The position numbers and the translations under genes are program-made. A model generated the notes under the pieces. The model ran no database searches and was not told the DNA's origin. It saw only the letters and a program-made list of their open reading frames with translations. This document shows, piece after piece, positions 7,456-36,021 of a DNA stretch of 64,000 nt (position 1 is the first letter of the stretch; every line of letters begins with the position of its first letter). The stretch is from Parcubacteria group bacterium Greene0416_36 (lineage in GTDB: Bacteria; Patescibacteriota; Patescibacteriia; VMEV01): positions 50 through 64,049 of the forward strand of contig VMEV01000003.1 in the NCBI GenBank assembly GCA_007375725.1. The letters run 5' to 3'.

Positions 7456-7488
7456 ATATGATTTTTATCTATTCAGGGGTGTATCGAG

Positions 7489-14960: not shown

Positions 14961-14998
14961 CGAGGGTAGGAGCACAGCGCGCTGTGCCCCTACCCTCG
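14961..14998. repeat. GC-rich palindrome family copy 1 (CGAGGGTAGGAGCACAGCGCGCTGTGCCCCTACCCTCG)
   Basis: Read directly; 37 nt upstream of nrdA start. Confidence 0.6.
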
Positions 14999-15034
14999 CG
15001 CTTTTGAGGCGCGCATTCTTAACCATACAATCCT

Positions 15035-17560
15035 ATGGACATCTTTGTCACCAAGCGAGACGGGGGCCGGGAGCCCTTCAACGCCAATCGAATCAATCAG
15101 TCGATCGAGCGTGTATGCTTTGGTCTGGCTGATCCGGTAGGGAAGGTCGTGCAGGTGGGAACCGATACCCGATTCATGTTGTATGACGGGATTACCACCG
15201 AGGAGCTGGATCAGGCCACCATCAATGCCGCGCTTCAGAATGTCCCGCAAGATCCGGAATACGAAAAAATCGCCACTAGGCTTCTCCTCAAAACTCTTTA
15301 CAAGCGAATTTTGGGGGATTATGAGACTGGCGAGATTCTTCTAATAAAACATCGCGAAGGTTTCGGCCGCTATATTCGCTTCGGGGTCGAGGCCAAGATT
15401 CTGGATGCCCGGATGGTCGCATTATTTGACCTCAATAAATTGTCGGCGCTAATGGATATGTCCCGCGATGATATTCTCACCTACGCAGGTCTCTCGACTC
15501 TGGAAGACCGCTACATGATCAAGGACAAAAAACTCGATTCCCTGGAACTCCCGCAATATTTTTGGATGCGTGTGGCTATGGGGCTTTCGTATCACGAGAA
15601 AAATCCGGTCGAGGCGGCCATTCGTTTCTACGACCGCATGTCTCGCTTGGAATACGTGGCCGGCGGATCCACCAATATCGGCGCGGGGACGACTCGTCCG
15701 GCCTTGTCCAACTGTTTTCTGCTTGAGATCCACGATGATGTCGAGCATATCGCCAAGTCGGTGTCCGATATTTTGAAATTGTCCAAGGCCAGCGGAGGCA
15801 TCGGTGCTTCAATCACCAAGCTCCGAGCCAGCGGTTCGCCATTGTCTTCGAATAATACGACTTCGAGCGGTCCCACGCCTTTTGCCAAAATCATCGACAC
15901 GGCCATCCGAGCGATTCAGCGTGGGGGAAAGAAGACGGGCGCACTCTGCTTCTACATGGAGAATTGGCATATTGATTTTCCGGAATACCTGACATGGAAG
16001 CACAATGCGGGGGATGATTATATGAGAATGAGAACCGCTAATACGTCCGTGTTTTTGTCGGATGAGTTCATGAAGAGAGTCGAAAATCGGGAGGACTGGT
16101 ACATGTTTGATCCCAAGGACACACCGGATCTCAATGAACTCTACGGTGAGGAATTTTCCAATCGCTACGTTGAGTATGTGAAAATGGCCGAGGAAGGGAA
16201 ACTCCGCGTGTTCAAAAAAATGCCAGCCGAGGAGCAGTTTCGGCAGATACTCGTGTCTCTGGAAACGACTTCTCATCCATGGCTGACCTGGAAAGACACC
16301 ATCAATCTTCGTGCGCTCAACAACAATACCGGCACCATTCACATGTCCAATCTCTGCACCGAGATCTGTCTCCCACAAAATCGTGACTCTATCGCCGTGT
16401 GCAATTTGGCATCGCTCAATCTCGCCACTCATTTGAATCCCGATGGCCGCGACATGGATTGGAAGAAACTCGCCGAGACCGTGCATCTGGCCATTCGGCA
16501 CCTGGACAATCTCATTGATATCAATGAACTCCCGGTTCCCGAAGCCATTAAATCCGACCGTGAAAATCGCGCGGTGGGACTGGGCGTGATGGGGCTCGCC
16601 GATGTGGTGGAGAAACTCGGATTTGCCTATGACAGCGACGAGGCTTATGTCTTCACGGACCGCGTTTTTGAATGGATCAGTTTTCACGCCATCGAGGAGA
16701 GCGCGGCCTTGGCCCAATCCCGCGGATCGTACACCCATTTTCACGGATCCGGTTGGTCTCGGGGCATGGTTCCGGTGGACACCTTCGCGAATCTGGAGAA
16801 GCAGAGCCGCCGGGCGGTCAAGATAGATAAGGGCGGGACTCACGCGGCTCTCGACTGGAAGAGTCTGCGCGAGAAAGTCCGCGCGGGCATGAGGAACGCC
16901 ACGCTTTTGGCGGTCGCCCCCAATGCCAATATCGGTCTCGTGGCCGGCACGACTCCGGGCATTGATCCTCGTTTCGCCCAAATGTTTTCCCGCAGTAAAA
17001 TTTCCGGAAAATATCTGGAAATCAATACCAATTTGGTGACGGATCTCAAGAAAGCCGGAATCTGGGAACAGGTACGAGAGAAAATCGTCGAGACCCAGGG
17101 CGATATCGAAAAAATTCCTGAAATCTCGGCCGATATCAAGGCCCGCTATAAGAGCGCCTTCACGGTCTCTCCCTACGCCTTCATCGAAGTGGCCGCGCGC
17201 GCCCAAAAATGGGTGGATCAGGCCCTCTCGCGCAATATGTATCTCGAGACGCGGGACATCGAAGAGATCATGGATATCTACATGGAAGCCTGGCGCCGCG
17301 GACTCAAAACCACTTATTATCTTCACATGAAGCCCCGCCATACCGCCGAGCAGAGTACGATCAAGGTGAATAAGGGCAAGGAGATGGGGAAGACGGGATT
17401 TTCTTCGGTCAAGTGGGGCGCGCCCAGCGAAGCGGAGCGAAGTGAGGGCTCTTCTCCTGTTCCCGAACAGAATAAGCCCGAACCTGTTGCATCCGCCCCC
17501 GCCCCCAAAGTCTGCCCCGTGGATCCGCAACTTAGATTGCAGTGCGATAGTTGTCAGTAG
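15035..17560 (+). CDS. nrdA: Ribonucleoside-diphosphate reductase large (alpha) subunit, class I, with N-terminal ATP-cone
   Basis: ATP-cone (VTKRDGGREPF), NLCTEI active-site loop, C-terminal Cys pair (CDSCQ); followed by nrdB. Confidence 0.9.
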   Translation: MDIFVTKRDGGREPFNANRINQSIERVCFGLADPVGKVVQVGTDTRFMLYDGITTEELDQATINAALQNVPQDPEYEKIATRLLLKTLYKRILGDYETGEILLIKHREGFGRYIRFGVEAKILDARMVALFDLNKLSALMDMSRDDILTYAGLSTLEDRYMIKDKKLDSLELPQYFWMRVAMGLSYHEKNPVEAAIRFYDRMSRLEYVAGGSTNIGAGTTRPALSNCFLLEIHDDVEHIAKSVSDILKLSKASGGIGASITKLRASGSPLSSNNTTSSGPTPFAKIIDTAIRAIQRGGKKTGALCFYMENWHIDFPEYLTWKHNAGDDYMRMRTANTSVFLSDEFMKRVENREDWYMFDPKDTPDLNELYGEEFSNRYVEYVKMAEEGKLRVFKKMPAEEQFRQILVSLETTSHPWLTWKDTINLRALNNNTGTIHMSNLCTEICLPQNRDSIAVCNLASLNLATHLNPDGRDMDWKKLAETVHLAIRHLDNLIDINELPVPEAIKSDRENRAVGLGVMGLADVVEKLGFAYDSDEAYVFTDRVFEWISFHAIEESAALAQSRGSYTHFHGSGWSRGMVPVDTFANLEKQSRRAVKIDKGGTHAALDWKSLREKVRAGMRNATLLAVAPNANIGLVAGTTPGIDPRFAQMFSRSKISGKYLEINTNLVTDLKKAGIWEQVREKIVETQGDIEKIPEISADIKARYKSAFTVSPYAFIEVAARAQKWVDQALSRNMYLETRDIEEIMDIYMEAWRRGLKTTYYLHMKPRHTAEQSTIKVNKGKEMGKTGFSSVKWGAPSEAERSEGSSPVPEQNKPEPVASAPAPKVCPVDPQLRLQCDSCQ

Positions 17561-17583
17561 TAGTGCCATCCCTCCCATTTCAG

Positions 17584-17667
17584 CAACAAATCCCTCCCCA
17601 GCCCTCCCTTTGACAAGGGAGGGAGCAATTTCCCCCTTGTCAAAGGGGGATTGAGGGGGATTTGTTG
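17584..17667. repeat. Composite palindromic repeat, copy C
   Basis: Read directly; between nrdA and nrdB. Confidence 0.8.
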
Positions 17668-17700
17668 TTCATTCTTCATTCTTAATTCTTCATTGAATCT

Positions 17701-18687
17701 ATGCCTCTCATCGGAAAAGCCTCTCCGGAGGATCTAAACATTCACTCGTCCCAATATCAGTGGGCGAGGAAACTCTATGACCAGGCCATTGCCAATACCT
17801 GGTATCCGCATGAAATCACGCTGAAGGAAGATCTCGAAGACTGGAGCCGCATGACGGATGAGGAAAAGCATGCGGTATCTTTCATCATGTCATTTTTCAA
17901 TCCCGCCGAACTCATTGTCAACCGCGTTTTGGCCCTCGGCGTTTATCCGTACCTCAAGGCCCCCGAGTGCCATCTGTATTTGGCTAAACAGATGTGGGAA
18001 GAGGCCAATCATTGCGTGGCTTTTGAGTATGTCATGGAAACTTTTCCGCTCGATCAGGCCAAGCTCTACCATGCCCATATCGAGACTCCTTCGATGCAGG
18101 CCAAGGAGGAATTCGTGGGGCAGTATTTGAAACGTATGACCGAGGATCGCTACGATGTATCCTCGGTCGAGGGCCGGAAAGATTTCGTGCGCAATTTGGT
18201 GGCGTATAATATCGTGATGGAGGGGATTTGGTTTTACAGCGGATTCATGGTCATGCTCTCTTTCCGCCAGCGCAATCTGCTCCGCAATTTCGGATCCATG
18301 ATCAACTGGGTTCTACGAGATGAGAGCCTGCATCTCAAATTCGGTATTCACCTGATACTTTCGATTCTGGAAGAGAATCCGGATCTCCTCACTGCCGAGT
18401 TCGCCGATGAGATCCGCGGGATTATCACCCGAGGTGTGGACCTCGAGACCACGTTCAATTCGGATCTGTTCCCCAATGGAATCTTGGGCCTCAATGCGGA
18501 CTATGTGAATCAATATGTCCGCTATGTGGCCGACCGCCGCCTCGAGGAACTGGGTCTTGGCCCCTACTACAATGTGACCAATCCCGCCAAATGGATGAGC
18601 TCGGCCACGGATGTCTATGAACTCGTCAATTTTTTCGAGTCCCAGAATACGAATTACGAGGTGAATGCGAGGGCACATAAAAAATAA
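17701..18687 (+). CDS. nrdB: Ribonucleoside-diphosphate reductase small (beta) subunit
   Basis: Ferritin-like di-iron motifs (EANHCVAFEY, EGIWFYSGF). Confidence 0.9.
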   Translation: MPLIGKASPEDLNIHSSQYQWARKLYDQAIANTWYPHEITLKEDLEDWSRMTDEEKHAVSFIMSFFNPAELIVNRVLALGVYPYLKAPECHLYLAKQMWEEANHCVAFEYVMETFPLDQAKLYHAHIETPSMQAKEEFVGQYLKRMTEDRYDVSSVEGRKDFVRNLVAYNIVMEGIWFYSGFMVMLSFRQRNLLRNFGSMINWVLRDESLHLKFGIHLILSILEENPDLLTAEFADEIRGIITRGVDLETTFNSDLFPNGILGLNADYVNQYVRYVADRRLEELGLGPYYNVTNPAKWMSSATDVYELVNFFESQNTNYEVNARAHKK

Positions 18688-18696
18688 ATATCGGTA

Positions 18697-18726
18697 GGGG
18701 CGGTCTTGAATGACCGCCCCTTTGCC
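18697..18726 (+). terminator. Terminator hairpin after nrdB (GGGGCGGTC-TTGAA-TGACCGCCCC + TTTG)
   Basis: Read directly; weak T-run. Confidence 0.45.
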
Positions 18727-18806
18727 TTATAGAAGATTCTGATAAAAAAACAACACGAGTGGGTTTCTCATGTTGGATCGATATTCGATCAAAAGTATTT
18801 TTGTTT

Positions 18807-19034
18807 TTACCCTACCTCCTCAGGGAATCTTTCCAGTTTTTTCGATTCTCTCCTCTGTAATTTGATAGGGTCCTCTCTTCTAAATTTCTTCTCATTTCCG
18901 TTTTCGTTCCCATTTTTCACTCCGTTTCCATTCATCCCATGCGTATTTTTTTGCCTAGTTTCTTTCTTGGCTTTTTCTTGTTCCATGACTTTTGCCATGG
19001 TCATTTTTTTGGACATGATAAAGATCTCCATCAA
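18807..19034 (-). CDS. Small basic hypothetical protein (Asn/Gly/Lys-rich)
   Basis: ORF track only; low-complexity; no homology recognised. Confidence 0.15.
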   Translation of the reverse strand: MMEIFIMSKKMTMAKVMEQEKAKKETRQKNTHGMNGNGVKNGNENGNEKKFRREDPIKLQRRESKKLERFPEEVG

Positions 19035-19135
19035 AAATTTTTCAAAAATAATCTGATATACAAAAATGTATTCAACTAATGAATACGGGAGTTATATTAA
19101 GGGATAGATGAAATCTTGTCAAATTCGATTTCTTT

Positions 19136-19384
19136 CTAAATGATTTCCAGCTCTTTGAGCAGTCCCACTTGTTCCTCATTCCCCGGGTCAAATTTCCCGC
19201 GGCTAAACCAGTGGATTCGGTCGAAATCACGGAGGAGGAGGTCCCAGATGTGGAGCCGGCCCTGGAGATAGACATAATCCTTGGTGTAGCAGACGCCGGG
19301 GGTGGCGCAGTCCGTGCCTCGGAAGGTGCGGGCGGCTCGGTCCCATGCGATGTCAGCGGGATTGGCTTGGAGCAGACTGGCCAA
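19136..19384 (-). pseudogene. GC-rich 82-aa ORF in otherwise AT-rich intergenic stretch; possibly remnant of a larger gene
   Basis: ORF track; composition contrast with flanks; no start context; no family recognised. Confidence 0.2.
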
Positions 19385-19606
19385 TTAATATTCCTAAGTC
19401 CCCTCATACTGTTTATAAATACAAACGAATAGGTTGGAAAGGTTGGAATCATTTTCTAGGCACACAAAAACAATTTTTAAGGAATCAATTTAAAAGTCAC
19501 GGAAACTTCCGTGTCTTTTAATTTTGTCTATATCTGCCCATCTTGTCCTTTCCCCCCATTTGGAATACCCTATAAAAATACCCTTTTAGTATTGTTTATC
19601 TTTTGT

Positions 19607-21052
19607 ATGCAAATTACTCTGATGGAGGCGAAAGTATCGGCCAATCATGCCAAATATATTCCGATCATGCTTTCTGTTGGCAAAGAGAAGACCGATGGCT
19701 GGGTGGTGGAGGGGGAGAAAAAGTCATTGGCTTTGGCGGTGGCGGATCCGAAGAAATTGAATCGCCGAAGCTGGTCTATGTTGATTCGCCGAGTTATTTC
19801 AATGGCGAAAGCGCATCATGTAAAGAATATTTGCTTGAATCTTGTTGATTTTAAATTCTCCCATTTGAAAATGTCTTGGGAAGATTTGGTTGAAGAAATA
19901 ACGGTGAATCTCAAGCTCGCCAATTTTGAATTTGTCCGCTACAAAACCAAGCCTGAGGAAGGGTGGAATTGGGTGAAGGAGGTAGCACTTATTACGCCCG
20001 AGGATTCATCGCGCCGTAGTCCCGCCACAAGAGGGACGGAGGCGGATAAATCCGCCAAGGCCGAGATCAAAAAAGGCCTAGAGAGAGGCGTGATTCTTGC
20101 CGACGAGATCAATAATACTCGTGTTCTCGCCAATACTCCCGGCGGCGACATCACGCCCGAGAGTCTCGCCGAAGAGGCGATCAAGGCGGCCAAGGGGCTG
20201 CCCATCAAGGTGGAGGTGCTGGGCGTGGAGAAAATGACCGAACTCAAAATGGGAGGACTCCTGGGCGTGGGGAAAGGGTCGCACTTCAAGCCGCGATTCA
20301 TCATTATGGAATACTTCGGCGGGAAGAAAAGCGAGAAGCCGGTGGTGATGGTGGGTAAAGGCGTGACCTTTGACACCGGAGGACTCAGCCTCAAGCCCGC
20401 CCCTAGTCTGCTCGACATGCATATGGATATGTCCGGCGGGGCGGCATGCATTCACGCGCTCGTGGCCGCGGCCAAGCTCAAGGTCAAGAAGAATTTGGTC
20501 GTACTGGTTCCAGCCGCTGAGAATATGGTCTCGGGCGAGAGTTACCGTCCCAATGATATCTTGACGATGATGTCCGGGAAGACGGTCGAGGTTCTCAATA
20601 CCGATGCCGAGGGCCGTATTATCCTGGCTGATGGACTTCACTATGCTCACCGATATGCGCCTCGTCTCATTGTCGATGTGGCCACACTCACGGGCGCTTC
20701 GCTTGCGGCTTTGGGTCAGTATGGCTCCGGTATTTTTACCAAAGACGAGTCCTTGTCCGATAAATTTTGCAAATGGGGCGAGGAAGTGGGGAACCGCGTC
20801 TGGCCTCTCCCTCTCTGGGACGAGTTCGCCGATGAAATCAAGAGTTCCTTCGCGGATCTCTCCAATATCGGTTCCGTCCGCTGGGGCGACGCTTCCCACG
20901 CCGCCGCATTCCTCTCGTCCTTCGCCGGCGATTTTCCTTGGATCCACCTCGACATGGCCCCCCGCATGGTCGCCACCAAAGCCGATCACCTAGCCAAAGG
21001 AGCAATGGGCGAGCCGGTCCGATTGTTGGTCAAGGTGATGGAAAATTATTAA
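19607..21052 (+). CDS. pepA: Leucyl aminopeptidase (M17 family)
   Basis: NTDAEGRIILADGL signature, M17 catalytic region; start moved to ATG 19607 (upstream part of ORF-track ORF looks non-coding). Confidence 0.85.
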   Translation: MQITLMEAKVSANHAKYIPIMLSVGKEKTDGWVVEGEKKSLALAVADPKKLNRRSWSMLIRRVISMAKAHHVKNICLNLVDFKFSHLKMSWEDLVEEITVNLKLANFEFVRYKTKPEEGWNWVKEVALITPEDSSRRSPATRGTEADKSAKAEIKKGLERGVILADEINNTRVLANTPGGDITPESLAEEAIKAAKGLPIKVEVLGVEKMTELKMGGLLGVGKGSHFKPRFIIMEYFGGKKSEKPVVMVGKGVTFDTGGLSLKPAPSLLDMHMDMSGGAACIHALVAAAKLKVKKNLVVLVPAAENMVSGESYRPNDILTMMSGKTVEVLNTDAEGRIILADGLHYAHRYAPRLIVDVATLTGASLAALGQYGSGIFTKDESLSDKFCKWGEEVGNRVWPLPLWDEFADEIKSSFADLSNIGSVRWGDASHAAAFLSSFAGDFPWIHLDMAPRMVATKADHLAKGAMGEPVRLLVKVMENY

Positions 21053-21133
21053 AAAATCCCTCCCCAGCCCTCCCTTTGACAAGGGAGGGGGTAGCTTCCC
21101 CCTTGTCAAAGGGGGACTGAGGGGGATTTGTTG
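21053..21133. repeat. Composite palindromic repeat, copy D
   Basis: Read directly; begins immediately after pepA stop. Confidence 0.8.
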
Positions 21134-21149
21134 CTGGCTTTTTCTATTT

Positions 21150-21929
21150 ATGAAAAATATCTCTCTTCTCTCCTGGAACGTCAACGGCATCCGCGCGGTC
21201 GATCGAAAAGGTGCGCTCGAATGGCTCCGCGTGGCCGAGTACGACATTGTCGCTCTCCAAGAAATCAAGCTTTCCGATGTATCCCAACTCACGGACAAAG
21301 TGAAAAATGTGCCGGGGTATCATTCGTTTTGGCATCCCTGCTTGGAGCGAAAGGCTTATTCGGGCGTGGCGGTGTACACCAAAAAAGAGCCCAAATCCGT
21401 CAAAACCGATTTTGGAAAAAATAGTCTGCTCTCGCGAGAAGGCCGGGTGATCGAAATGGATTTCGGGGATTTTATATTCCTCAATATTTATTTCCCCAAT
21501 GGGGGATCCGGACCCGAGCGCTTGGATTTTAAGATGCGTTTTTACGCCGAATTTTTGAATTATATAAAAGCACTCGATAAAGCCGGCAAAAATATTATTT
21601 TTTGCGGGGATGTCAATACCGCCCACAAACCCATCGACCTCGCCCGCCCCAAGGCTAATGAGGAAGTATCTGGGTTTCTGCCCATGGAGCGCGCCTGGAT
21701 CGACGAGCTAGTGTCAGCCGGTTTTGTCGATACCTTCCGACTGTTTCACTCGGAGGGGGAGCGATACACTTGGTGGGACCAAAAATCTCGCGCCCGCGAC
21801 CGGAACGTCGGCTGGAGAATCGATTATTTTTTTGTCAATGATCAAATGAAGCACAAGGTCGTCTCTGCGGATATTCTCCCCAATTATATGGGGTCGGATC
21901 ATTGTCCGGTGACTTTGGGGATTAAATAA
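21150..21929 (+). CDS. xth: Exodeoxyribonuclease III (AP endonuclease, ExoIII/APE1 family)
   Basis: LSWNVNGIRA N-terminal motif, DHCPV C-terminal motif. Confidence 0.9.
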   Translation: MKNISLLSWNVNGIRAVDRKGALEWLRVAEYDIVALQEIKLSDVSQLTDKVKNVPGYHSFWHPCLERKAYSGVAVYTKKEPKSVKTDFGKNSLLSREGRVIEMDFGDFIFLNIYFPNGGSGPERLDFKMRFYAEFLNYIKALDKAGKNIIFCGDVNTAHKPIDLARPKANEEVSGFLPMERAWIDELVSAGFVDTFRLFHSEGERYTWWDQKSRARDRNVGWRIDYFFVNDQMKHKVVSADILPNYMGSDHCPVTLGIK

Positions 21930-22011
21930 AAAAATCCCTCCCCAACCCTCCCTTTGACAAGGGAGGGGGTAGCTTCCCCCTTGTCAAAGGGGGATTGAGG
22001 GGGATTTGTTG
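21930..22011. repeat. Composite palindromic repeat, copy E
   Basis: Read directly; begins immediately after xth stop. Confidence 0.8.
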
Positions 22012-22021
22012 CTATATTTCT

Positions 22022-22561
22022 ATGATCGGCAAAACCCATCTCGCCATCGGTGCCGCCTCCGCTTGGATTGGCACGGCTGTACTCTCACTCCCCGCAGTTT
22101 TCTGGGCCCCTATGGTCGGGGCTTTATTCGCGTTGGTTCCTGATATCGATGCGTCAGAAGCAAAAATTTCTAACCTCAATTACAAGGGCATTCAATTTTT
22201 TAGGCCCTTCCAAATGGTCTTCTCCAATTTTAAGCATCGCGGGTTTTGTCATTCGATTGTGTTTTTGATCGGGCTTTATTTATTGGGTCTATACGGCTTT
22301 TATGCGGGCTTTATTTCCGCGGGGTTTCTCTCTTTTGCCATGATCGGCTACGCCAGCCACTTACTCCTCGATGCCCTGACTCCGGCCGGGATCGGCTTGT
22401 TTTGGCCCATTCCTATTAAATTTCGGCTCTTGCCGAGGGTGATTTCTCCCAAGACCGGCGGGTTTGTCGATAGTCTTTTTTGGATCGTGGGAAATGTGGG
22501 ATGGCTTCTCTATTACCTCGTCTATTTTGGCGCCTCGACCGTCCCGGGCGGGGGATTTTAA
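22022..22561 (+). CDS. Membrane-bound metal-dependent hydrolase (YdjM/DUF457-like)
   Basis: MIGKTHLAIGAA...HRGFCHSIVF...SHLLLD pattern; multiple TM helices. Confidence 0.55.
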   Translation: MIGKTHLAIGAASAWIGTAVLSLPAVFWAPMVGALFALVPDIDASEAKISNLNYKGIQFFRPFQMVFSNFKHRGFCHSIVFLIGLYLLGLYGFYAGFISAGFLSFAMIGYASHLLLDALTPAGIGLFWPIPIKFRLLPRVISPKTGGFVDSLFWIVGNVGWLLYYLVYFGASTVPGGGF

Positions 22562-22611
22562 ATTAAAAAACTTCCAATTAAAATGGAAGTTATTTCACTT
22601 AAGAAATTTCT

Positions 22612-24566: not shown

Positions 24567-24573
24567 CCCAACT

Positions 24574-24603
24574 AAAAACACCTTATTTAAATAGGGTGTT
24601 TTT
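24574..24603 (+). terminator. Intrinsic terminator after tRNA-Gln (AAAAACACC-loop-GGTGTTTTT)
   Basis: Read directly. Confidence 0.6.
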
Positions 24604-27888: not shown

Positions 27889-27970
27889 TTTTCTTTACAA
27901 AAGTCAAATTGAAAAATCAAAAAAAAACCGTATCAACGGTTTTTTTAAATTGCATCGCGGCTAAGTAAGG

Positions 27971-28044
27971 TAGCAGGGATGGGGGTCGAACCCATGACCT
28001 CGGGTTTATGATACCCACGCTCTAACCAGCTGAGCTACCCTGCT
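27971..28044 (-). tRNA. tRNA with CAT anticodon (elongator Met or Ile2-lysidine type; not initiator)
   Basis: Manually folded: acceptor AGCAGGG/CCCTGCT, G1-C72 pair and only two G-C in lower anticodon stem argue against initiator. Confidence 0.8.
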
Positions 28045-28103
28045 AAATCTGTGCCTGCACCGCGTAGCCCTCTCCTCGAGCGTAAGCGATGAAGGCGAAG
28101 CGG

Positions 28104-28187
28104 TGCCGTCGGTCGGAATCGAACCGACACCTCGGTGAAGAGACAGGTTTTTGAGACCTGCGTGTCTACCAGTTCCACCACGACGGC
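28104..28187 (-). tRNA. tRNA-Leu (anticodon CAA), type II long variable arm
   Basis: Manually folded: acceptor GCCGTCG/CGACGGC, anticodon stem CAGGT/ACCTG loop CUCAAAA, T-arm GTCGGTTCGATTCCGAC. Confidence 0.8.
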
Positions 28188-28189
28188 CT

Positions 28190-28226
28190 GCCTAATGTCA
28201 AATCGCAAAGCGATTTGACATTAGGC
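28190..28226. repeat. Perfect 37-nt palindrome GCCTAATGTCAAATCGC-AAA-GCGATTTGACATTAGGC between the divergent tRNA cluster and parA
   Basis: Read directly; contains TTGACA on both strands. Confidence 0.5.
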
Positions 28227-28437
28227 GCGTCGAGCCCCCTAAAGGGCGAAGACGTCATGTCTAATCCGCATTTGCAATCGATGCCTTTTTCAGAAAAAGG
28301 TGGTCCCATTTGGAGGATGGACCCATAATTCATACGACAAATATATGCGATTTTATTTGCGTTGTCAAAGGAGAAAAAATGAAATATTATGAAACTACAG
28401 ATCTCTTCGTTTCGAGGAAATTTTATTTTTTTCAGCT

Positions 28438-29211
28438 ATGGCTCACATCATTTCGCTCATCAATCAAAAAGGGGGGGTAGGGAAGACGACGACATCGATC
28501 AATCTTGCGGCGGCTCTAGCCATCGAAGGGAAAAAAGTCCTCCTCGTGGATCTCGATCCTCAGGCCAATGCGACATCGGGACTCGGTATTGATTACCGGA
28601 CCGTCGGGGGAGATATTTATTCGCTTCTATTGGGCAAAACCAAGCCCGAGGATTCCGTGTTTCAGACTACGGTCGAGAATTTGTACGTTCTCCCCGCCAC
28701 TCCGGAATTGGCCGGCGCGTCCGTGGATTTGGTCACTCAGGAAAAACGGGAATATCGGCTCGTCGAGCCTCTTGCTCATCTCTCCAATTATTTCGATTAT
28801 ATTCTGATCGACTGCCCGCCGTCTTTAGGACTCCTCACCATCAATGCTCTGACTGGTTCCGGTCAGATTTTGATCCCAGTTCAGGCTGAGTATTATGCTC
28901 TAGAAGGGATCGGTCAACTTTTGTCTACGGTTGGCTTGGTCCAAGAACATCTGGCTCCAAATCTTAAAATTTTAGGCGCGGTGGTGACCATGTATGATCG
29001 CCGCAACAAGCTGGCTCTGCAGGTTGTCAAAGAATTGGATCAGTATTTCCCCTACTATGTTTTTAAATCGTTTATCCCCAGAAATATTCGTCTGACCGAG
29101 GCGCCGAGCCATGGGAAGACGATTTTCGATTATTCTCCCGGATCCTTGGGCGCCATGGCGTACCGCAATTTAGGCGGAGAGATTATCGAGAAGTTGGGGA
29201 AATTAATATAA
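28438..29211 (+). CDS. parA: Chromosome partitioning ATPase ParA/Soj
   Basis: Deviant Walker A KGGVGKTT. Confidence 0.9.
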
Positions 29212-29236
29212 TTTTTTTAAGAATTTATCAATTTCT

Positions 29237-30115
29237 ATGTCCAATACCGGTTTAGGTCGCGGGCTGGGGGCCCTCATTCCCCGGCTTCCAAAATTAGAAC
29301 AAATTTCTTCTAGGAATGAACTCCTCAAAAGCGAAGAAGAGTCGGGTGTTCGCGTGGTCGAACTGCCCCTAGATGCGATTGTCCCCAATTCCGCCCAGCC
29401 GCGTACGGTATTTGATGAAGTCTCTTTGGCGGAACTCGCCTCCTCGATCCGTCAGTATGGAGTCTTGAGTCCGATCATTGTTGAGGAAGTGGGTTCTGGC
29501 AAATACGCCATCATTGCCGGCGAGCGCCGCTGGCGAGCCGCACGTCTGGCTGGCCTCGACACCATCCCCGCCATTGTCCGCGAAACCGGGGAGCAGGAGC
29601 GTCTCGAATTGGCTCTGGTTGAAAATATCCAGCGCCGAGATCTCGATGCTATCGAAGAAGCCATGGCCTATGACCGCCTCGGCTCGGAATTCGATCTTAC
29701 CCAAGAAGAAATCGCCGATCGCATGGGCAAAAGCCGCTCCCAGATCGCCAATTTTATTCGCCTTCTCGCTCTCCCCGAGGACATCCGTCGCGCCCTGCAG
29801 GAGGGAATGATCTCCGTGGGCCACGCAAAGGTGATTTTGGGAATGGAAGACGAAGAGTCTCAGCGTAATTTATTCCGCAAAATTTTGGAAAATGAACTCA
29901 GCGTCCGTGATGCCGAAGGCTTGGTGCCCGTCAAATCCACCTTCCGCCGCTCTGAAGGCAACCCGGCCGACCCCCGCTGGTCTGATTGGGAGCAGACCCT
30001 CTCCGAAGAACTCTCCGCCCGCGTCCTCATCTGCCGAAAAGGCAAATGCAATGAAATTCGAATCCAATGCGAACCGGAGGAACTCGAGGAGATTGTGGAG
30101 AAATTGAAGGAGTAA
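29237..30115 (+). CDS. parB: Chromosome partitioning protein ParB/Spo0J
   Basis: ParB box GERRWRAA, HTH region. Confidence 0.9.
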   Translation: MSNTGLGRGLGALIPRLPKLEQISSRNELLKSEEESGVRVVELPLDAIVPNSAQPRTVFDEVSLAELASSIRQYGVLSPIIVEEVGSGKYAIIAGERRWRAARLAGLDTIPAIVRETGEQERLELALVENIQRRDLDAIEEAMAYDRLGSEFDLTQEEIADRMGKSRSQIANFIRLLALPEDIRRALQEGMISVGHAKVILGMEDEESQRNLFRKILENELSVRDAEGLVPVKSTFRRSEGNPADPRWSDWEQTLSEELSARVLICRKGKCNEIRIQCEPEELEEIVEKLKE

Positions 30116-30121
30116 CGTGTT

Positions 30122-30177
30122 GGAAACGCAAAAATGTAGGGGCACAGCGCGCTGTGCCCCTACATTTTTGCGTTTCC
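30122..30177 (+). terminator. GC-rich palindrome family copy 2 acting as parAB terminator (GGAAACGCAAAAATGTAGGGGCACAGCGCGCTGTGCCCCTACATTTTTGCGTTTCC)
   Basis: 56-nt perfect palindrome with T-run on 3' side, 7 nt after parB stop. Confidence 0.6.
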
Positions 30178-30316
30178 CCCTTGACAAAATTCCCATTTTC
30201 GCCTATCCTATCCGTATTCTCTTCCCTGCGCTTGATATGGAGCATAATAGTTTGAAAAGGGAAGAGAGTTGCTGATTCGTGTTTTTTGATATTTTTTCTT
30301 TTGAAAGGGCTATCAG

Positions 30317-31483
30317 ATGCAGAATATTGTAAATTTGATAACTGCGTTTAAGGGGACATTGTCCCTGTTAGTTTGTCTTGTCATGCTTCTATTAGTACTC
30401 AAACGCATATTTGCGTTTGGGAAATGTCTTCCCCCTCAACAACTTACTGTGACTGAAGCGTCACAGGTCTCTCTTAACTGGACTCAACGATTTCGCATCG
30501 TTTTGAGCGGAGCTTCTGGTAAACCTAAAGGAGATTATTATTATGATGCTCAGCAATTGAAAATTGTGAAAGCGGAACTTCTCCTGCTCCAACAAGGAAA
30601 TAATAGAATAGAAGCCAAGTATTCTATTTTGTCTGGTCAGTGGACACAAGAGGTGGCTACTAATCAGGCATTGTCGCAGAAATTGGCAGAATCCAATGAC
30701 GAATTGAAACGTGTGATCGCTCAGTCCGCCATTTCAAAAGTCGCTCGAGAGAAAGAAGCGGGGGATTATGAATTGCTTGTTCTCTCATTGCAAGCTGATC
30801 TTGTTGGTACGTGCAATACCCTTAAGAATGCACAGGATTCTTTGGCCAAAGAGGCAACTGAAGTTACTCGCTTGAAGGAAGAGATCGTAGGCTGGAATAA
30901 AACGGTTGAAGGTCTCAATAATGAGTGTCGAAAATTGTCAGAACAAAATAAAGCCTTGGAAGTTCATCTCAAAAGCGCTGAATGTCATATAGAAGTTCGT
31001 GACGCAAAGATCGTGGAGATAAGGAAGGTTTTTCAGAAACAGGCTAACCTGTACTTTCAAGAGTATACCTATCAATTTCCGCATGACATAGGTCATGAGA
31101 TTCTTGAGGTATCTGGAGAAACCTCTGAAACACTTTATGATATTGAAGAGGCTCCAAAGGGTCAAAGCGTGTTGCAGAAACCACAGGAATGCAAGATATT
31201 CAAGCCCCTAACTAGAGAAGAGTGGGATAATCCTTTTCCTAGTGACATACATCCAGAGTGTACAATGGTTCGAGAGGCTTTTGAGAAAGATCAGAAGGAG
31301 CATGCTAGAAAATTTCTGGCTCAGCAGTTGCAGAATTCTAATTCTCATATTGCGAAACTCCACGGACAGGAAGGTCCAATCGAGCGACAGGGAGAGGGTG
31401 AAGATTCTGAGCCCGTGTTGGTAGAGGAAGTAACCACGGAGACAATCGTAGATATCGATCTACCAGATCGTCAAGAAGGCTAA
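30317..31483 (+). CDS. Membrane-anchored coiled-coil protein (hypothetical)
   Basis: N-terminal TM helix (LSLLVCLVMLLLVL) then long heptad-like region rich in E/K/Q/L. Confidence 0.5.
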   Translation: MQNIVNLITAFKGTLSLLVCLVMLLLVLKRIFAFGKCLPPQQLTVTEASQVSLNWTQRFRIVLSGASGKPKGDYYYDAQQLKIVKAELLLLQQGNNRIEAKYSILSGQWTQEVATNQALSQKLAESNDELKRVIAQSAISKVAREKEAGDYELLVLSLQADLVGTCNTLKNAQDSLAKEATEVTRLKEEIVGWNKTVEGLNNECRKLSEQNKALEVHLKSAECHIEVRDAKIVEIRKVFQKQANLYFQEYTYQFPHDIGHEILEVSGETSETLYDIEEAPKGQSVLQKPQECKIFKPLTREEWDNPFPSDIHPECTMVREAFEKDQKEHARKFLAQQLQNSNSHIAKLHGQEGPIERQGEGEDSEPVLVEEVTTETIVDIDLPDRQEG

Positions 31484-31577
31484 AAGTTTCGAAACAATAT
31501 TTTTTTAGAAACCATTTTTGCAAAAGAGGCACTCTTAACCAAGAGCGCCTCTTTTTTCGCTTGTCGCGTGTTGGCTG

Positions 31578-31619
31578 TTGTCCCTCCCTTGTCAAAGGGA
31601 GGTTAGGAGGGATTTGTTG
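31578..31619. repeat. Half-copy (single arm) of the palindromic repeat; overlaps topA stop
   Basis: Read directly: CCCTCCC-TTGTCAAA-GGGAGG..GGGATTTGTTG. Confidence 0.6.
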
Positions 31620-33822
31620 CTTCATAATCACACTCCTTACTCGAACACTTATTCTTGCCTTTACCCGCCAAAATGATCAAGGATGAGCACTTTGGACACT
31701 TCTCGCCCGTGGGTTTGTTCCAGAGGGAGAAGTCGCAGGCCGGGTATTTATTGCAGGAATAGAAAATCTTGCCGGTTTTGGTGCGTTTTTCGGCGATTTC
31801 TCCCAATCCGCATTTGGGGCAGGCAATGCCGGTGGTGATGGACATGATATTCTTGCATTCGGGGTAAGCCGAGCAGGCCAGGAATTTGCCGTATCGTCCC
31901 ATTTTTACAGCCATGGGAGCTCCGCACTTGTCGCAGATTTTGTCGGTTTTTTCCATTGGGGGCCGGCCGGATTCTTCGGAGCTGAGTTCGGCCGTGGTTT
32001 TGCATTCGGGGTAATTGGAACAGGCTAGAAATTTGCCAAACTTGCCGATTTTTTTGATCATGGGGGAGCCGCATTTGGGGCAGACTTTGTCGGTCGCTTC
32101 CTCGGTCAATTCTTTTTTGGAAACGGTTTTGTCTTTTTGCACAAGATTTTGTTTAAAAGGCTGGTAAAAATCATTGATCAGCGGCTGCCAGGATTTTTTG
32201 TCCTCAGCGATCATATCCAGATCTTCTTCCATCTTAGCCGTGAATTCAATGTCCACGATATTGGGGAAGTGCTGGACCAAGACTTTATTGACCAGCTCGC
32301 CGGTCTCGGTAGGCGCGAATTTTTTGTCCTCGTTTTTGATCACGTACCCGCGCGCCTGGATGGTATCGATGGTGGGCGCGTAAGTGGAAGGGCGGCCAAT
32401 GCCGTGTTCTTCGAGTATTTTGATGAGAGTGGCTTCCGAATATCGTGCCGGAGGTTCAGTGAAATGCTGTAGCGGCTCGATTTTATTGGCGGATAATTTA
32501 TCGCCTTCCTCCAGCTCGGGAAGAATTGATTCCTTGGTCATGGTCTTGTAGATTTTCAGGAACCCGTCGAATCGGAGGATCACGCCATTGGCCCGGAATG
32601 AGTATACTCCCGCGCTGATATCCACCGCGGTTTGAGCGAGCACGGCGTCGGTCATTTGTGTGGCCACGGTCCTACGCCAAATCAGGTTGTAGAGCTTATA
32701 TTGGCGCGGTTCGAGCTGATCCTTGATGGATTCGGGCGTGCGTTCCACCGAGGTCGGGCGTATGGCCTCATGCGCTTCCTGGGCGGATTTGGATTTGGTC
32801 GTGTAGGTGAGAGCCTCGCTGGGCAGGTACTTGTCGCCCAGTTCACTCTTGATGTAGCTTCTCGACTGATCAATGATCTCGCGGGAGAGATTCACGGAAT
32901 CGGTTCTCATGTAGGTGATGAGACCCGTCGGATCGCCTTTGTCCAATTTAATACCCTCATAGAGCTGTTGGGCCAGTTTCATGGTTTGTTTGCTGGAGAA
33001 TCCCATTTTTTTGGAGGCTTCCTGTTGGAGGGTGCTGGTGGTGAAAGGGGGGAGGGGGTGTTTCTTCGTCTCTTTTTTCTCAATTTTCAAAATGGAATGA
33101 GGTTTATTTTTTACTTCCGCCAATATTGCTTCCGCGTCTTTGGCCGTGGCAATAGCGAATTTATCCAGTTTGTTGCCGTTTTTGGCATGGAGCAAGGCGG
33201 GGAAGGCCGACTCGTCCGTGGCTCCTATTTTTTTGAATAATCCTTCGACGGTCCAATATTCCTGGGGCAGGAATTTGCGTATCTCTTCCTCGCGCTCGCA
33301 TACCAGGCGAACCGCGACGGACTGCACGCGTCCTGCGGAGAGTCCGAAACGGATTTTTTTCCAGAGAAAGGGAGAGAGTTCGTAGCCCACCAAACGGTCG
33401 AGAACGCGCCGTGCCTGCTGGGCATCGACGAGGTGTGGATAAATGACGCGCGGGGTTTTGAGGGCCTCTTCTATGGCTTTTTTGGTGATTTCATGGAAAA
33501 CAATGCGTTTGGTTTTCGCGGGATCGAGGCCCAAGGCTTGGGACAGGTGCCAGGCTATCGCCTCACCTTCGCGGTCTTCGTCCGTTGCCAGAATCACCTC
33601 GCCCGAATTGGCGGTGAGCTCTTTGAGTTCGGCGAGCGTCGCCCGTGCCTTTTCGGGCACTTCGTACTGCGGCAGGAACCCGTGTTCGATGTCGATTCCC
33701 ATCTTGCTTTTGGGCAAATCGCGGATATGTCCCTTGGATGACCGCACGGTATAAGCCTTTGGCAGGAATTTGGAAATAGTTTTGGCCTTTGTCGGCGACT
33801 CCACGATAATAAGTGTTTTCAT
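31603..33822 (-). CDS. topA: DNA topoisomerase I with C-terminal zinc-ribbon repeats
   Basis: TOPRIM N-term (MKTLIIVESPTKAKTI), C-x-x-C zinc ribbons (CPKCGSP, CDKCGAP, CPKCGLG, CPKCS); start set at ATG 33822 (ORF-track 5' extension looks spurious). Confidence 0.9.
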   Translation of the reverse strand: MKTLIIVESPTKAKTISKFLPKAYTVRSSKGHIRDLPKSKMGIDIEHGFLPQYEVPEKARATLAELKELTANSGEVILATDEDREGEAIAWHLSQALGLDPAKTKRIVFHEITKKAIEEALKTPRVIYPHLVDAQQARRVLDRLVGYELSPFLWKKIRFGLSAGRVQSVAVRLVCEREEEIRKFLPQEYWTVEGLFKKIGATDESAFPALLHAKNGNKLDKFAIATAKDAEAILAEVKNKPHSILKIEKKETKKHPLPPFTTSTLQQEASKKMGFSSKQTMKLAQQLYEGIKLDKGDPTGLITYMRTDSVNLSREIIDQSRSYIKSELGDKYLPSEALTYTTKSKSAQEAHEAIRPTSVERTPESIKDQLEPRQYKLYNLIWRRTVATQMTDAVLAQTAVDISAGVYSFRANGVILRFDGFLKIYKTMTKESILPELEEGDKLSANKIEPLQHFTEPPARYSEATLIKILEEHGIGRPSTYAPTIDTIQARGYVIKNEDKKFAPTETGELVNKVLVQHFPNIVDIEFTAKMEEDLDMIAEDKKSWQPLINDFYQPFKQNLVQKDKTVSKKELTEEATDKVCPKCGSPMIKKIGKFGKFLACSNYPECKTTAELSSEESGRPPMEKTDKICDKCGAPMAVKMGRYGKFLACSAYPECKNIMSITTGIACPKCGLGEIAEKRTKTGKIFYSCNKYPACDFSLWNKPTGEKCPKCSSLIILAGKGKNKCSSKECDYEATNPS

Positions 33823-33927
33823 AATGCAATGATATTTTGTTGGAATAGTCTCAAAATTTAATATATAGACAAAGTGATTACTTGTCACTCGATGCGTGAT
33901 GTGGATTACGAAAATCAGCGCACTCAA

Positions 33928-34014
33928 CAACAAATCCCCCTCAGTCCCCCTTTGACAAGGGGGAGGCTGTTACCCCCTCCCTTGTCAAAGGGAGGGTTGG
34001 GGAGGGATTTGTTG
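33928..34014. repeat. Composite palindromic repeat, copy G (inverted orientation)
   Basis: Read directly; upstream of topA. Confidence 0.8.
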
Positions 34015-34143
34015 CTTTCAAAGTCGGCCAATTATGTTTTTTATTCCAGAATTTGTCAAATATGGATTTAAAATCCCGATAAGAATGTTACTTATCGGGG
34101 ACATGAATTTTAGGTGCATTTTGTTTTTTCCAGTTGCGATTTT

Positions 34144-34740
34144 TTAAGATATAAAGACAAAGAAGCAACACGTGAACGATAAAAAAAATCCGAATACTAC
34201 GTCCATGACACAATGCTGTTTGACCGCGACGGTGCTGATAGCAATGAGACTAGCCCAGAGGAAAAATACCATTCCTTTTTTCCAGCATCCCATAAAAAGA
34301 AAGATGAACGCCCCCGCAAAGGAGAGGGATACATGGGATGAAGGACATGCATTCTGCGGGCTGTCCAGTTTTTTCATGGGGAGATACAGATACTGTGTGA
34401 AAAAATCATGACAGTGGCTATGATCCCAATAAAATTTCGTGGGCCAGAAGAGGTAGATGAAAAATGACACGAAGATAATGAGACAATAGCCATAAAATGC
34501 TCGATACATTTGTTCCGGATGATCTGTCCACAGAATTACTAGCGCCAGTTTCAAAAAAAATGATAGATAAACTATCATCATCCAGGGGATGTAAGGTATT
34601 TTATGATCCCAAGAGAGTATCGGGACCTCGACTAAATCAAAGAAGCGGAAATGATTCGTCGGAAAATACGCTACTGAAGTGATTACCCCCAGCAATAGTA
34701 CAAAGAAAATTTTCTTGCGAAAGAACCGCGGTTTTGACAT
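34144..34740 (-). CDS. PAP2-superfamily membrane phosphatase-like protein
   Basis: PSSH (PSGH-type) motif and downstream H...D (KQHCVMDVV) in a polytopic membrane protein. Confidence 0.6.
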   Translation of the reverse strand: MSKPRFFRKKIFFVLLLGVITSVAYFPTNHFRFFDLVEVPILSWDHKIPYIPWMMIVYLSFFLKLALVILWTDHPEQMYRAFYGYCLIIFVSFFIYLFWPTKFYWDHSHCHDFFTQYLYLPMKKLDSPQNACPSSHVSLSFAGAFIFLFMGCWKKGMVFFLWASLIAISTVAVKQHCVMDVVFGFFLSFTCCFFVFIS

Positions 34741-34803
34741 GGCATCCTCCTCAAATAAAGGTGGAATTGTTCCCTATAATGATTCATTATAGGCATAGTT
34801 GCA

Positions 34804-35904
34804 TTAGGAAATCCAATATCGTCCTCCTCTGCTGATAATTGTTTTTCTCATCTCCATTTTCGTGATGATTCCCAAGAGCTCGCCATACGGAATACTGCTG
34901 GAGATGAGGAGTTCATCCAGAGTAGGGGAATCGTGGAGGAGGGAGAGTATTTTTTTCTCTTCGGCGGATAATTCGATCGGGATCGCGAGAGGGAGACTTG
35001 ATTGAGCACCGGGAGAAGTCTTTTCTAGCGTGAAGAGTTCATTCAAATCCTCGAGAGACGCGATCACTGCGGCTCCACTAGCCAGGAGCCGGTTGGTTCC
35101 CGCGGACTGGGGGCGGGTGATGTCTCCGGGGACCGCGTAGACATTGCGATTCTGTTCGAGGGCGAATCGGGCGGTGATGAGGGCTCCGGAATCTTTGGGG
35201 GCCTCGACGATGATGGTATCGGCTGCGAGTCCGGAAATGATCCGATTTCTCCGTACAAAATTGGCGGGATGCATGCTCGAGAGCGGGGGATACTCAGACA
35301 AGAGCAGTCCTTTCTCAGCGATTTGTCGTGCTAATCCTTGGTTCTTGGCGGGGGATATCTCTCGCTCCACGAGCGGATTGCCCAAGACCGCTATGGTCCG
35401 GCCCCCATGCTCCATTGCTTTTTGGTGGGCCACGGTATCGATCCCTGTGGCGAGGCCGCTGACAATAGAAACCTCTTTTTTGGCGAGATATTCGGCAATC
35501 AAGCCCGCCATTTTCTCTCCATAGGGTGACGGTTTGCGAGTCCCCACTATGGCCGCGCGCTTTCCTTGAGAAGCGAGAGTGATATCTCCTTTATAAAAAA
35601 GGAGAGCTGGGGGAGAGGGAATTTCTGTCAAAATCTGTGGATAACTTTTATCCTGAATCGAGGTGATTTGGATTCGGGATTCGTCTAGTGCTTTAAATAG
35701 GGGCTTTGGGTCCAGTTTCATTTTTTGGATCTCATAATTTTCCAGGCATTTTCTGGGGAGATTGAGGGGCACGAGTTCTTTTCCTGCCGCTTCCCACGCG
35801 GTTTTCCCATCCGGAAAATGGCGCATGATTTTGGCCGTGGCGGCTGGGCCAAATCCGTCCAGAAAATAAAAAAGCGCCCAATAATACGAAGGTGGATACT
35901 CCAT
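34804..35904 (-). CDS. dprA: DNA processing protein DprA (Smf)
   Basis: Rossmann-like DprA core (GTRKPSPYG...SGLATGIDTVAHQ...GNPL). Confidence 0.85.
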   Translation of the reverse strand: MEYPPSYYWALFYFLDGFGPAATAKIMRHFPDGKTAWEAAGKELVPLNLPRKCLENYEIQKMKLDPKPLFKALDESRIQITSIQDKSYPQILTEIPSPPALLFYKGDITLASQGKRAAIVGTRKPSPYGEKMAGLIAEYLAKKEVSIVSGLATGIDTVAHQKAMEHGGRTIAVLGNPLVEREISPAKNQGLARQIAEKGLLLSEYPPLSSMHPANFVRRNRIISGLAADTIIVEAPKDSGALITARFALEQNRNVYAVPGDITRPQSAGTNRLLASGAAVIASLEDLNELFTLEKTSPGAQSSLPLAIPIELSAEEKKILSLLHDSPTLDELLISSSIPYGELLGIITKMEMRKTIISRGGRYWIS

Positions 35905-35973
35905 AATGATATTGGCGCACAGGTGCTTTATTTCTTAGACAGATTATAGAAAGGAGAGTTTTAATTCAAGGGG

Positions 35974-36021
35974 GCATAAATATGTAGGGGCACAGCGCGC
36001 TGTGCCCCTACATATTTATGC
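35974..36021. repeat. GC-rich palindrome family copy 3 (GCATAAATATGTAGGGGCACAGCGCGCTGTGCCCCTACATATTTATGC) with T-rich 3' flank on + strand
   Basis: Read directly. Confidence 0.6.

Follow-up and report, generated by a model that had tools for sequence, protein, structure and literature searches.

We found that a set of GC-rich palindromes in a 64,000-nt stretch of DNA from Parcubacteria group bacterium Greene0416_36 (contig VMEV01000003.1, positions 50 to 64,049; the window) are, judged by their sequence, 'double-foot' repetitive extragenic palindromes (REPs). They correspond to the REPs of TnpA_REP subclass 2.4, equivalent to group 4 among tyrosine transposases associated with REPs (RAYTs), a class that has already been described. 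A 28-mer identical to that in the window is linked to RAYT genes in other organisms. There is a good likelihood that the palindromes are double-foot REP hairpins with A/T-rich arms that serve as bidirectional intrinsic terminators in this small groundwater genome. A preliminary description of the window, made from the letters alone, had reported three palindromes with a common core and took them for a second repeat family. What appeared to be a new 'co-varying palindrome' becomes a recognizable double-foot REP with a likely partner RAYT.

Six palindromes built on a 28-bp unit

The three palindromes of the preliminary description were confirmed by sequence and by an inverted-repeat scan. The 16-mer GCACAGCGCGCTGTGC had exactly three matches in the window (starts at 14972, 30142 and 35990), compared to 0.11 expected by chance, and none of 100 shuffles reached three. 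The count of three was incomplete. A fourth copy, near the start of the window, had been missed, and two more are on the same contig, 0.8 and 2.2 kb past the window end (Table 1). Statements below about this genome refer to the 73.5 kb that we examined, that is, the window and 9.5 kb beyond its end from one ENA contig (L245; L followed by a number denotes a fetched locus or contig), except where the window is named.

All six copies have zero spacer and are 38-56 bp long, and five of the six are perfect. It had been claimed that each copy is perfectly self-complementary. This is true of copies 2 and 3 and of all arms, but the core of copy 1 has a single A/C mismatch (14971/14988). Relative to the dyad, position -14 has GTAG or GTAA in every copy, and position +14 has CTAC or TTAC. 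Because GTAR is 14 nt from the dyad in all six, the repeat unit is 28 bp, GTAR-N10/N10'-YTAC, with the slash at the dyad and with GTAR and YTAC as its two feet. When the spacing of GTAR...YTAC was allowed to range over 26-30 nt, just these six were found, with 9-10 of 10 inner pairs complementary, and no degenerate copies. Perfect zero-spacer palindromes fell into two classes: three with a half-length of 8, about the number expected by chance, and these six with half-lengths of 19-28, counting copy 1 across its one mismatch. The foot is followed by GGG/CCC in copies 2, 3, 4 and 6, by GGA/CCC in copy 1 and by AGA/TCT in copy 5. All six copies are intergenic and are single units; there were no inverted doublets.

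The palindrome continues 5-14 nt past the 28-mer in all six copies. These arms had been described as completely different from copy to copy. They are not: copies 2 and 3, and the three copies that had not been listed, have arms that are A-rich on the left and T-rich on the right, as in GCAAAAAT, GCATAAATAT, GCAAAACA, AAAAAATTT and AAAAACAAG.

Self-complementarity was maintained although the sequences differed. When the six copies were aligned, 113 of 114 cells were Watson-Crick paired. Fourteen of the 19 pairs had changed on both sides, none had changed on one side only, and no shuffle of 500 matched the observed pairing. Sliding the register of the alignment dropped pairing to 31-52%. Half-sites differ between copies at up to 9 of 14 positions, always symmetrically; the core of copy 4 has 4 differences per half from the other copies and every one is compensated. 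The view that structure is conserved while sequence diverges is therefore upheld, and it is backed by the self-complementary interiors of the wider family and by arms in Nodosilinea (both below).

The palindromes are not a product of one assembly. Several independent ENA assemblies are identical to the window, base for base, over the overlap. One of these spans copy 2 and two others span copy 4, one of them also copy 1. In addition, k=31 Logan contigs end 1-8 nt past the dyad (ends of L122, L123 and L124, and of L246 and L247). Since a perfect palindrome that exceeds k in length should cause a break at the dyad, these contigs provide independent read-level support. We give hardly any credence to the idea that the palindromes are an assembly artefact, a DNA-uptake signal or inverted pairs related to restriction-modification. 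The window contains comEC and dprA, and the centers of the palindromes happen to be 6-bp restriction-type palindromes. However, the independent assemblies reproduce the window and together span copies 1, 2 and 4. The preliminary description had raised an uptake or restriction-modification motif scattered inside genes; no copy is inside a gene, and there are no isolated half-sites, only two one-mismatch matches in the window compared to 0.9 expected.

The 28-bp unit occurs in many phyla and is linked to RAYT genes

We scanned one genome per species with a degenerate motif and found at least 120 matching stretches in Chloroflexota, Gemmatimonadota, Acidobacteriota, Cyanobacteria, Binatia, Nitrospiria, Planctomycetota and others. 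The commonest form was GTAGGGGCGCAGCATGCTGCGCCCCTAC (70 of 126 among the matches listed). The exact window 28-mer was present in at least 120 further metagenome contigs. Viral contigs gave 146 matches to GTAGGGGC-N12-GCCCCTAC, in which the outer 8+8 nt were fixed. All six inner pairs were complementary in 79 of these and five in 33, and the chance of six complementary pairs is 2.4e-4 per match. The interiors of the viral matches comprise dozens of different sequences, that of copy 6 among them. These results show that REPs of the same 28-bp class occur across many phyla and on viral contigs, and that their interior varies freely and stays self-complementary. The fetched loci also contain other 28/29-nt GTAG...CTAC palindromes for which we had not searched, one with the foot GTAGAGAC, like copy 5.

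Copies in other genomes are mostly intergenic and near gene ends. Thirty-four were between convergent genes compared to 8 between divergent genes, the two kinds of spacer being about equally common, and the median distance to a gene 3' end was 27 nt. There was no sign of target-site duplication; direct-repeat matches of the flanks were at chance level, and the flanks were random apart from a weak preference for a pyrimidine at -1.

One locus with the exact 28-mer, GGAGGAACAAAATGGTGCGGGGCCGGGC[core]AAGATGCACATCGCACCC, and diverging flanks recurred in L128, L130, L134, L138, L139 and about 40 further metagenome loci. It is apparently acidobacterial, given that L015 (Terriglobia) shares it. A locus common to many related genomes indicates that the same REP copy was inherited across them.

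We searched for RAYT genes by tblastn, using E. coli RayT as the first query and the homologues found that way as further queries. RAYT-like genes were beside or around the 28-mer at 10 loci. At a locus from Gemmatimonadota (L018), the RAYT gene (7003-7602) has GTAGGGGCGCAGCATGCTGCGCCCCTAC on both flanks, which is the REPtron arrangement. The exact window core, GTAGGGGCACAGCGCGCTGTGCCCCTAC, is in frame (peptide CRGTARCAPT) within the RAYT-like genes of L127, L143, L201, L203 and L224. In L126, L142 and L235, GTAGGGGCACAGCGCGCTGTGCCCCTAC is about 330 nt from a RAYT-like gene, and that gene contains another variant. The encoded proteins match NF047646 (REP_Tyr_transpos; REP-associated tyrosine transposase) with E values of 1e-18 to 1e-29, most also match PF01797 (Y1_Tnp), and they have NH[IFV]H, WQ and YIxNNP-like motifs. 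JGI gives the name 'REP element-mobilizing transposase RayT' to the very large family that includes them, and the segment xRGTAR[RC]APT is kept in about 40 of the top 120 closest family members. There is a practical side to this. Perfect palindromes as long as these cause k=31 assemblies to break at the dyad and yield spurious small open reading frames (ORFs), as well as peptides like CRGTARCAPT in RAYT genes.

Two other observations concern these loci. L224 contains two nested REPs (GRGTSRGTARCAPTCAPT), one in the center of the other, and we found no description of such a case in the RAYT and REP papers cited here. A RayT-type gene is located 2-4 kb away from the 28-mer in L237 and L229.

The palindromes belong to a described class

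Quentin et al. 2018 (BMC Genomics 19:475, PMC6006769) use NH[IFV]H, WQ and YIxNNP as the motifs that define TnpA_REP subclass 2.4 (RAYT group 4 of Bertels et al. 2017) and report it from Cyanobacteria, Bacteroidetes and various other phyla. Its REPs include families with a 'double foot', 5' GT[AG]G and 3' C[TC]AC, as well as canonical long REPs, in which the bottom of the stem is three G-C pairs. In-frame insertion of REPs within tnpA_REP is described in the same paper as unique to this subclass. Bertels et al. 2017 found RAYT group 4 in Cyanobacteria, Chlorobia and Caldilineae, with flanking 16-mers that are moderately repeated. Both the unit common to the six copies and the link to RAYT genes match this published account, and we therefore assign the palindromes to the class. 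The 'second repeat family' is indeed repeated but was already known as a class. Shared features are both feet, a GGG/CCC stem bottom in most copies, a size range of 20-50 nt, extragenic location, multiple copies, and the identical 28-mer beside or in frame within subclass-2.4-like tnpA_REP genes elsewhere. What is peculiar here is the host, labelled Parcubacteria (candidate phyla radiation, CPR), which the cited papers do not name for subclass 2.4, and the uniformly extended perfect arms: every copy has complementary arms of 5-14 bp, and these are rare in other genomes. The cited papers contain no description of A/T-tract arms around double-foot REPs.

The palindromes also resemble the canonical GTAG REPs and bacterial interspersed mosaic elements (BIMEs) of Enterobacteria, Pseudomonas and Stenotrophomonas (Nunvar 2010; Di Nocera 2013; Ton-Hoang/Corneloup). 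In both, a GC-rich palindrome follows a GT(A/G)G head, both are between unidirectional and convergent genes and near 3' ends, where roles in termination and mRNA stability have been proposed, and certain canonical families are embedded in longer palindromes. In canonical REPs, GTAG is unpaired and at one end only, which gives polarity, the stem is imperfect or bulged, the loop is 2-4 nt, and inverted doublets are frequent (PMC3733652, PMC2817692). In contrast, the palindromes here have a mirrored, paired foot, are exact through the center and occur as single units, not as the doublets of BIMEs or REPINs. Given the paired mirrored foot, zero spacer and single units, we do not classify them as canonical single-foot GTAG REPs or BIMEs. 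REPINs (Bertels & Rainey 2011) are likewise long symmetric hairpin units thought to be mobilized by RAYTs, with halves that evolve compensatorily, but a REPIN consists of two separate inverted REPs and a spacer, whereas here one 28-bp hairpin bears both feet. Literature searches with 16-20-mers and 12-mers of the core gave nothing relevant, searches for GTAGGGGC in texts on palindromes gave primer tails only, and the core sequence is absent from the supplements of Di Nocera 2013.

Work on other RAYTs suggests how such hairpins would multiply. The transposase, an HUH enzyme, would bind the single strand in its folded form, then cleave and rejoin it beside the GTAG foot, which is the supposed route of multiplication. 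Cleavage and strand transfer by a REP transposase have been assayed in vitro (PMC8266576). Since there is a foot on both strands, either strand could be a substrate. By analogy, the copies in this organism may have been spread by a RAYT.

The preliminary description had also suggested that the palindrome might be the site of a dimeric regulator. We consider it very improbable that the palindromes are operators of a dimeric DNA-binding regulator that secondarily became terminators. The perfect two-fold symmetry and the copy 36 nt upstream of nrdA are what an operator would lead one to expect. However, half-sites within one genome differ symmetrically at most of their positions in some comparisons, 4 of the 6 copies are behind genes and not in promoter regions, and the family, whose interiors vary freely, is found in many phyla and on viral contigs. 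No regulator family was linked to the motif across 120 genome loci. Clustering of neighboring ORFs at these loci found no family in more than 8, and the recurrent ones were generic (SDR, EF-G, ABC, kinases). In addition, the partner that emerges is a single-strand HUH transposase (RAYT/TnpA_REP) and not a duplex-binding dimer, which leaves the regulator idea unsupported.

Gene-end positions and terminator features

Four of the six copies start 6-27 nt past a stop codon (6, 9, 21 and 27 nt). Copy 2 is separated from the parB stop codon by 6 nt, and copy 4 begins 21 nt past the stop of the upstream gene on the + strand. Copy 1 is 36 nt before the nrdA ATG, and near 14936-14941 it is preceded by a TATAAT-like hexamer; this copy is probably a hairpin in the 5' untranslated region or upstream of it rather than a gene-end terminator. 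Copy 3 is 69 nt upstream of the start of dprA (- strand) and 336 nt downstream of the stop of pth (- strand). The distances previously given after parB and before nrdA hold. A U-rich run follows the GC stem on both strands in 5 of the 6 copies, and in copy 1 on the + strand only. The predicted RNA hairpins have folding energies between -31.5 and -48.7 kcal/mol and z-scores between -4.4 and -10.7 (for copy 4, -38.3 kcal/mol and -9.7).

We compared the palindromes to the ordinary terminators in an inventory of long hairpins. These have the layout A-tract, stem, loop, stem and T-tract, for example ACAAAAAATTCGCCGAGG-loop-CCTCGGCGAATTTTTTTT. Because the arms of the palindromes share this layout, they can be read as the A and U tracts of a terminator, with the REP as its stem. 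Transcription from either side would then produce a stable GC hairpin followed by a U-run, leading to termination and to protection of the mRNA 3' end. Based on these features, the palindromes are most likely active as terminators, as the preliminary description had supposed in calling them terminator-like. They have in common with bidirectional Rho-independent terminators a GC-rich hairpin (-31 to -49 kcal/mol) between an A-run and a T-run, the layout of the other terminators of the genome and, in four of the six copies, the position 6-27 nt past stop codons. They differ in that the stem is a repeated, cross-phylum REP and is not locus-specific, and in having no loop at the DNA level.

An alternative would be that the palindromes evolved in place as ordinary intrinsic terminators and came to look like REPs by convergence on a stable GC hairpin. 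Their sites at gene ends, the A/T-tract layout and the fact that no RAYT gene was seen locally are all consistent with this. We nevertheless think it very unlikely. The 28-mer is common to three copies and is identical to the REP in or beside RAYT genes of unrelated bacteria, the distance from GTAR to the dyad is fixed at 14 nt in all six, and the spacer is zero compared to loops of 4-10 nt in nearly all ordinary terminators of the genome.

Several findings weigh against the interpretation of the palindromes as double-foot REPs that work as terminators. There was no tnpA_REP gene or remnant in the 73.5 kb, by tblastn, profile hmmsearch or Pfam; the only hmmsearch matches for RAYT had E>0.3, and the two best were the REP itself, translated. 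The foot of copy 5 is GTAGAGAC and not GTAGGGGC. Two copies are not at a gene end: copy 1 is upstream of nrdA, and copy 3 follows pth by 336 nt. Termination might be weakened by the complete pairing of the U-run with the A-run. Finally, complementarity extends in all six copies to the two central pairs, although a hairpin does not allow these to pair, and there is not one G-U pair among about 140 pairs. A function of the RNA cannot explain the complementary center or the lack of G-U pairs.

Other sequences near the copies have features of promoters or RNAs. A sigma-70-like -35/-10 pair begins within 3-6 nt past the right arm at 15004-15031 (copy 1), 30181-30209 (copy 2; TTGACA-17-TATCCT) and 36024-36052 (copy 3). 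Given these distances, the REP terminators appear to abut the next promoter. An unannotated 336-nt stretch (window 36022-36357) extends from copy 3 to pth. It contains the promoter-like sequence after copy 3 (TTGACT-17-TAAGAT, + strand), an inverted repeat (36076-36095 / 36147-36166) and a hairpin with A/T tracts (36248-36301), and it could encode a small RNA of ~250 nt. It has no Rfam match. A scan of the whole window at the Rfam gathering threshold found four tRNAs and nothing else, and permissive scans around copies 1 and 3 gave only sub-threshold matches to miRNA-like hairpins. From these scans, no curated RNA family applies to the palindromes. At 24574-24603, 7 nt past a tRNA gene, there is a zero-spacer palindrome that is AT-rich and has one mismatch, AAAAACACCTTATTT / AAATAGGGTGTTTTT. 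It resembles a terminator without the GC stem, and is what an 'empty' pair of arms would look like.

Symmetry of the arms and center

We asked how general the extended arms are. In other genomes the palindrome ends at the 28-mer in about 95% of copies. The expectation that arms always co-vary is true of all six copies here and is overstated elsewhere. For the exact core in metagenomes, the half-length was 14 in 97 of the 120 copies listed, 15 in 15, 16 in 5 and at least 17 in 3. This spread is the distribution expected by chance, and viral contigs were alike. Among 193 non-redundant copies elsewhere, 8 were extended by at least 4 nt compared to 0.75 expected (L105, L226 and L069 are examples), with arms of GC type. 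The excess of extended palindromes is small but real.

Four lineages of Nodosilinea allowed one locus to be compared. All have a REP of this family in the spacer between hemE and a nuclease gene. The arms vary by lineage and stay complementary: GTCGGGTT/AACCCGAC, TCTTAG/CTAAGA, GCT/AGC with a shortened core, and 14-nt arms with a decayed core. As a comparison of sequences, this supports the notion that symmetric arms can be inherited. In the lineage with the decayed core (L376, 1091-1200), the 14-nt arms are perfect. N. nodulosa (L380, about 1167-1188) has a 22-nt 'mini' version, GCTGTAGGGGTGCCCCTACAGC, with feet only, where its relatives have the full double-foot REP. In L379, the annotated start codon of the nuclease is an ATG at the REP center and is probably a mis-call.

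No such comparison was available for the window. The ParB protein of the window is 100% identical to one in the metagenome-assembled genome Gr01-1014_18, and the next-best match among 5.8 billion proteins is only 47% identical. There is thus no close relative for a locus-by-locus comparison. We found no orthologous loci of the six copies in a sister genome; strain-level contigs were identical to the window.

The center mutates more readily than any other position across the family, but as a rule it is palindromic. The pattern suggests that each copy starts out with perfect symmetry and that later constraint is on the stem only. Possible origins of the symmetry are the central deletion of an inverted REP dimer, which Quentin et al. 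2018 (PMC6006769) proposed as a way for the double-foot unit to arise, hairpin-templated strand switching, and insertion at the dyad of a palindrome already present. The cause of the exact symmetry of arms and center may be either a DNA-level process or selection.

A DNA-level process could take one of two forms. The REP hairpin could seed template switching within or between strands, with one flank as the template for the opposite one ('palindrome growth'), or the 28-mer could insert exactly at the dyad of AT-rich palindromes that were there before. Either would complement, and not replace, the reading of the palindromes as REPs that act as terminators. We entertain this idea only tentatively and are inclined to doubt it. 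The exact Watson-Crick pairing of centers and arms in all six copies, the excess of extended copies elsewhere, the nested REPs of L224 and the 'empty' palindrome after the tRNA gene are all consistent with it, as is the report of REPs 'inserted within' longer palindromes in three species (Di Nocera 2013). However, there is no relative to reveal an empty site or an unextended copy, and insertion into a loop should often be off-center, but no off-center remnants were seen. The orientation of the arms, an A-run and then a T-run in 5 of 6, points to function over neutral copying, and ordinary compensatory changes in a stem under selection are another way to read the Nodosilinea orthologues.

If both the terminator role and the outward growth are true, then a mobile hairpin has been domesticated as a gene-end signal in a reduced genome. 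A more elaborate version, which we consider unlikely, is that a very small Parcubacteria-labelled genome keeps a REP/RAYT system, that its REPs have turned into terminators, and that a symmetrizing process extends 28-bp hairpins to perfect 44-56-bp palindromes. In that case bidirectional terminators would arise de novo, seeded by a selfish hairpin, and the exact symmetry, together with that of the center that cannot pair, would be the footprint of their birth.

Table 1. Locations of the palindromes, of RAYT-like genes that contain a REP, and of a further inverted repeat of the genome. Half-sites, cores and arms are written left / right.
Feature	Location	Palindrome	Core	Arms
Copy 4	window 72-115	44 bp, perfect; GCAAAACAGTAAGGGCTCAGAA / TTCTGAGCCCTTACTGTTTTGC	80-107; GTAAGGGCTCAGAA / TTCTGAGCCCTTAC	GCAAAACA / TGTTTTGC
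Copy 1	window 14961-14998	38 bp	14966-14993	CGAGG / CCTCG, perfect; then CGCTTTTGAGG
Copy 2	window 30122-30177	56 bp, perfect	30136-30163; GTAGGGGCACAGCG / CGCTGTGCCCCTAC	GGAAACGCAAAAAT / ATTTTTGCGTTTCC
Copy 3	window 35974-36021	48 bp, perfect	35984-36011	GCATAAATAT / ATATTTATGC
Copy 5	L245 12748-12793	perfect, zero spacer; AAAAAATTTGTAGAGACGCGCCA / TGGCGCGTCTCTACAAATTTTTT		
Copy 6	L245 14142-14187	perfect, zero spacer; AAAAACAAGGTAAGGGCGTATTG / CAATACGCCCTTACCTTGTTTTT		
RAYT-like gene with internal REP	L127 3122-3745			
RAYT-like gene with internal REP	L203 725-1330			
RAYT-like gene with internal REP	L224 59-673			
RAYT-like gene with internal REP	L126 1-528			
RAYT-like gene with internal REP	L235 595-1215			
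CCCTTTGACAAGGG/CCCTTGTCAAAGGG repeat	window 7511-7555			
CCCTTTGACAAGGG/CCCTTGTCAAAGGG repeat	window 14734-14779			
CCCTTTGACAAGGG/CCCTTGTCAAAGGG repeat	window 17606-17647			
CCCTTTGACAAGGG/CCCTTGTCAAAGGG repeat	window 21072-21113			
CCCTTTGACAAGGG/CCCTTGTCAAAGGG repeat	window 21950-21991			
CCCTTTGACAAGGG/CCCTTGTCAAAGGG repeat	window 33948-33992			
CCCTTTGACAAGGG/CCCTTGTCAAAGGG repeat	window 36321-36365			
CCCTTTGACAAGGG/CCCTTGTCAAAGGG repeat	window 41937-41981			
CCCTTTGACAAGGG/CCCTTGTCAAAGGG repeat	L245 12874-12915			

Other repeats and genes in the window

The genome contains another repeat family with at least 9 intergenic copies (Table 1). Its unit is the inverted repeat CCCTTTGACAAGGG(AGGGG)-N7-18-(CCTCC)CCCTTGTCAAAGGG, with a TTGACA hexamer inside, and it is often flanked by 'aaatccctcc'. 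Presumably this is the 'first' family of the preliminary description. It was absent from all other fetched loci. A 110-nt inverted repeat at 3242-3351, ACTGTCATTGCGAGG...CGCAATGACAGT, is located between two genes and has 49-nt arms that are 82% complementary. Adjacent genes at 42499-44994 and 45022-52224 encode very large proteins (831 and 2400 amino acids) with T4SS_pilin and Big_5 matches. In addition, two PCRF/RF-1 release-factor genes are present in the same 64 kb, at 6397-7455 (- strand) and 58683-59693 (+ strand).

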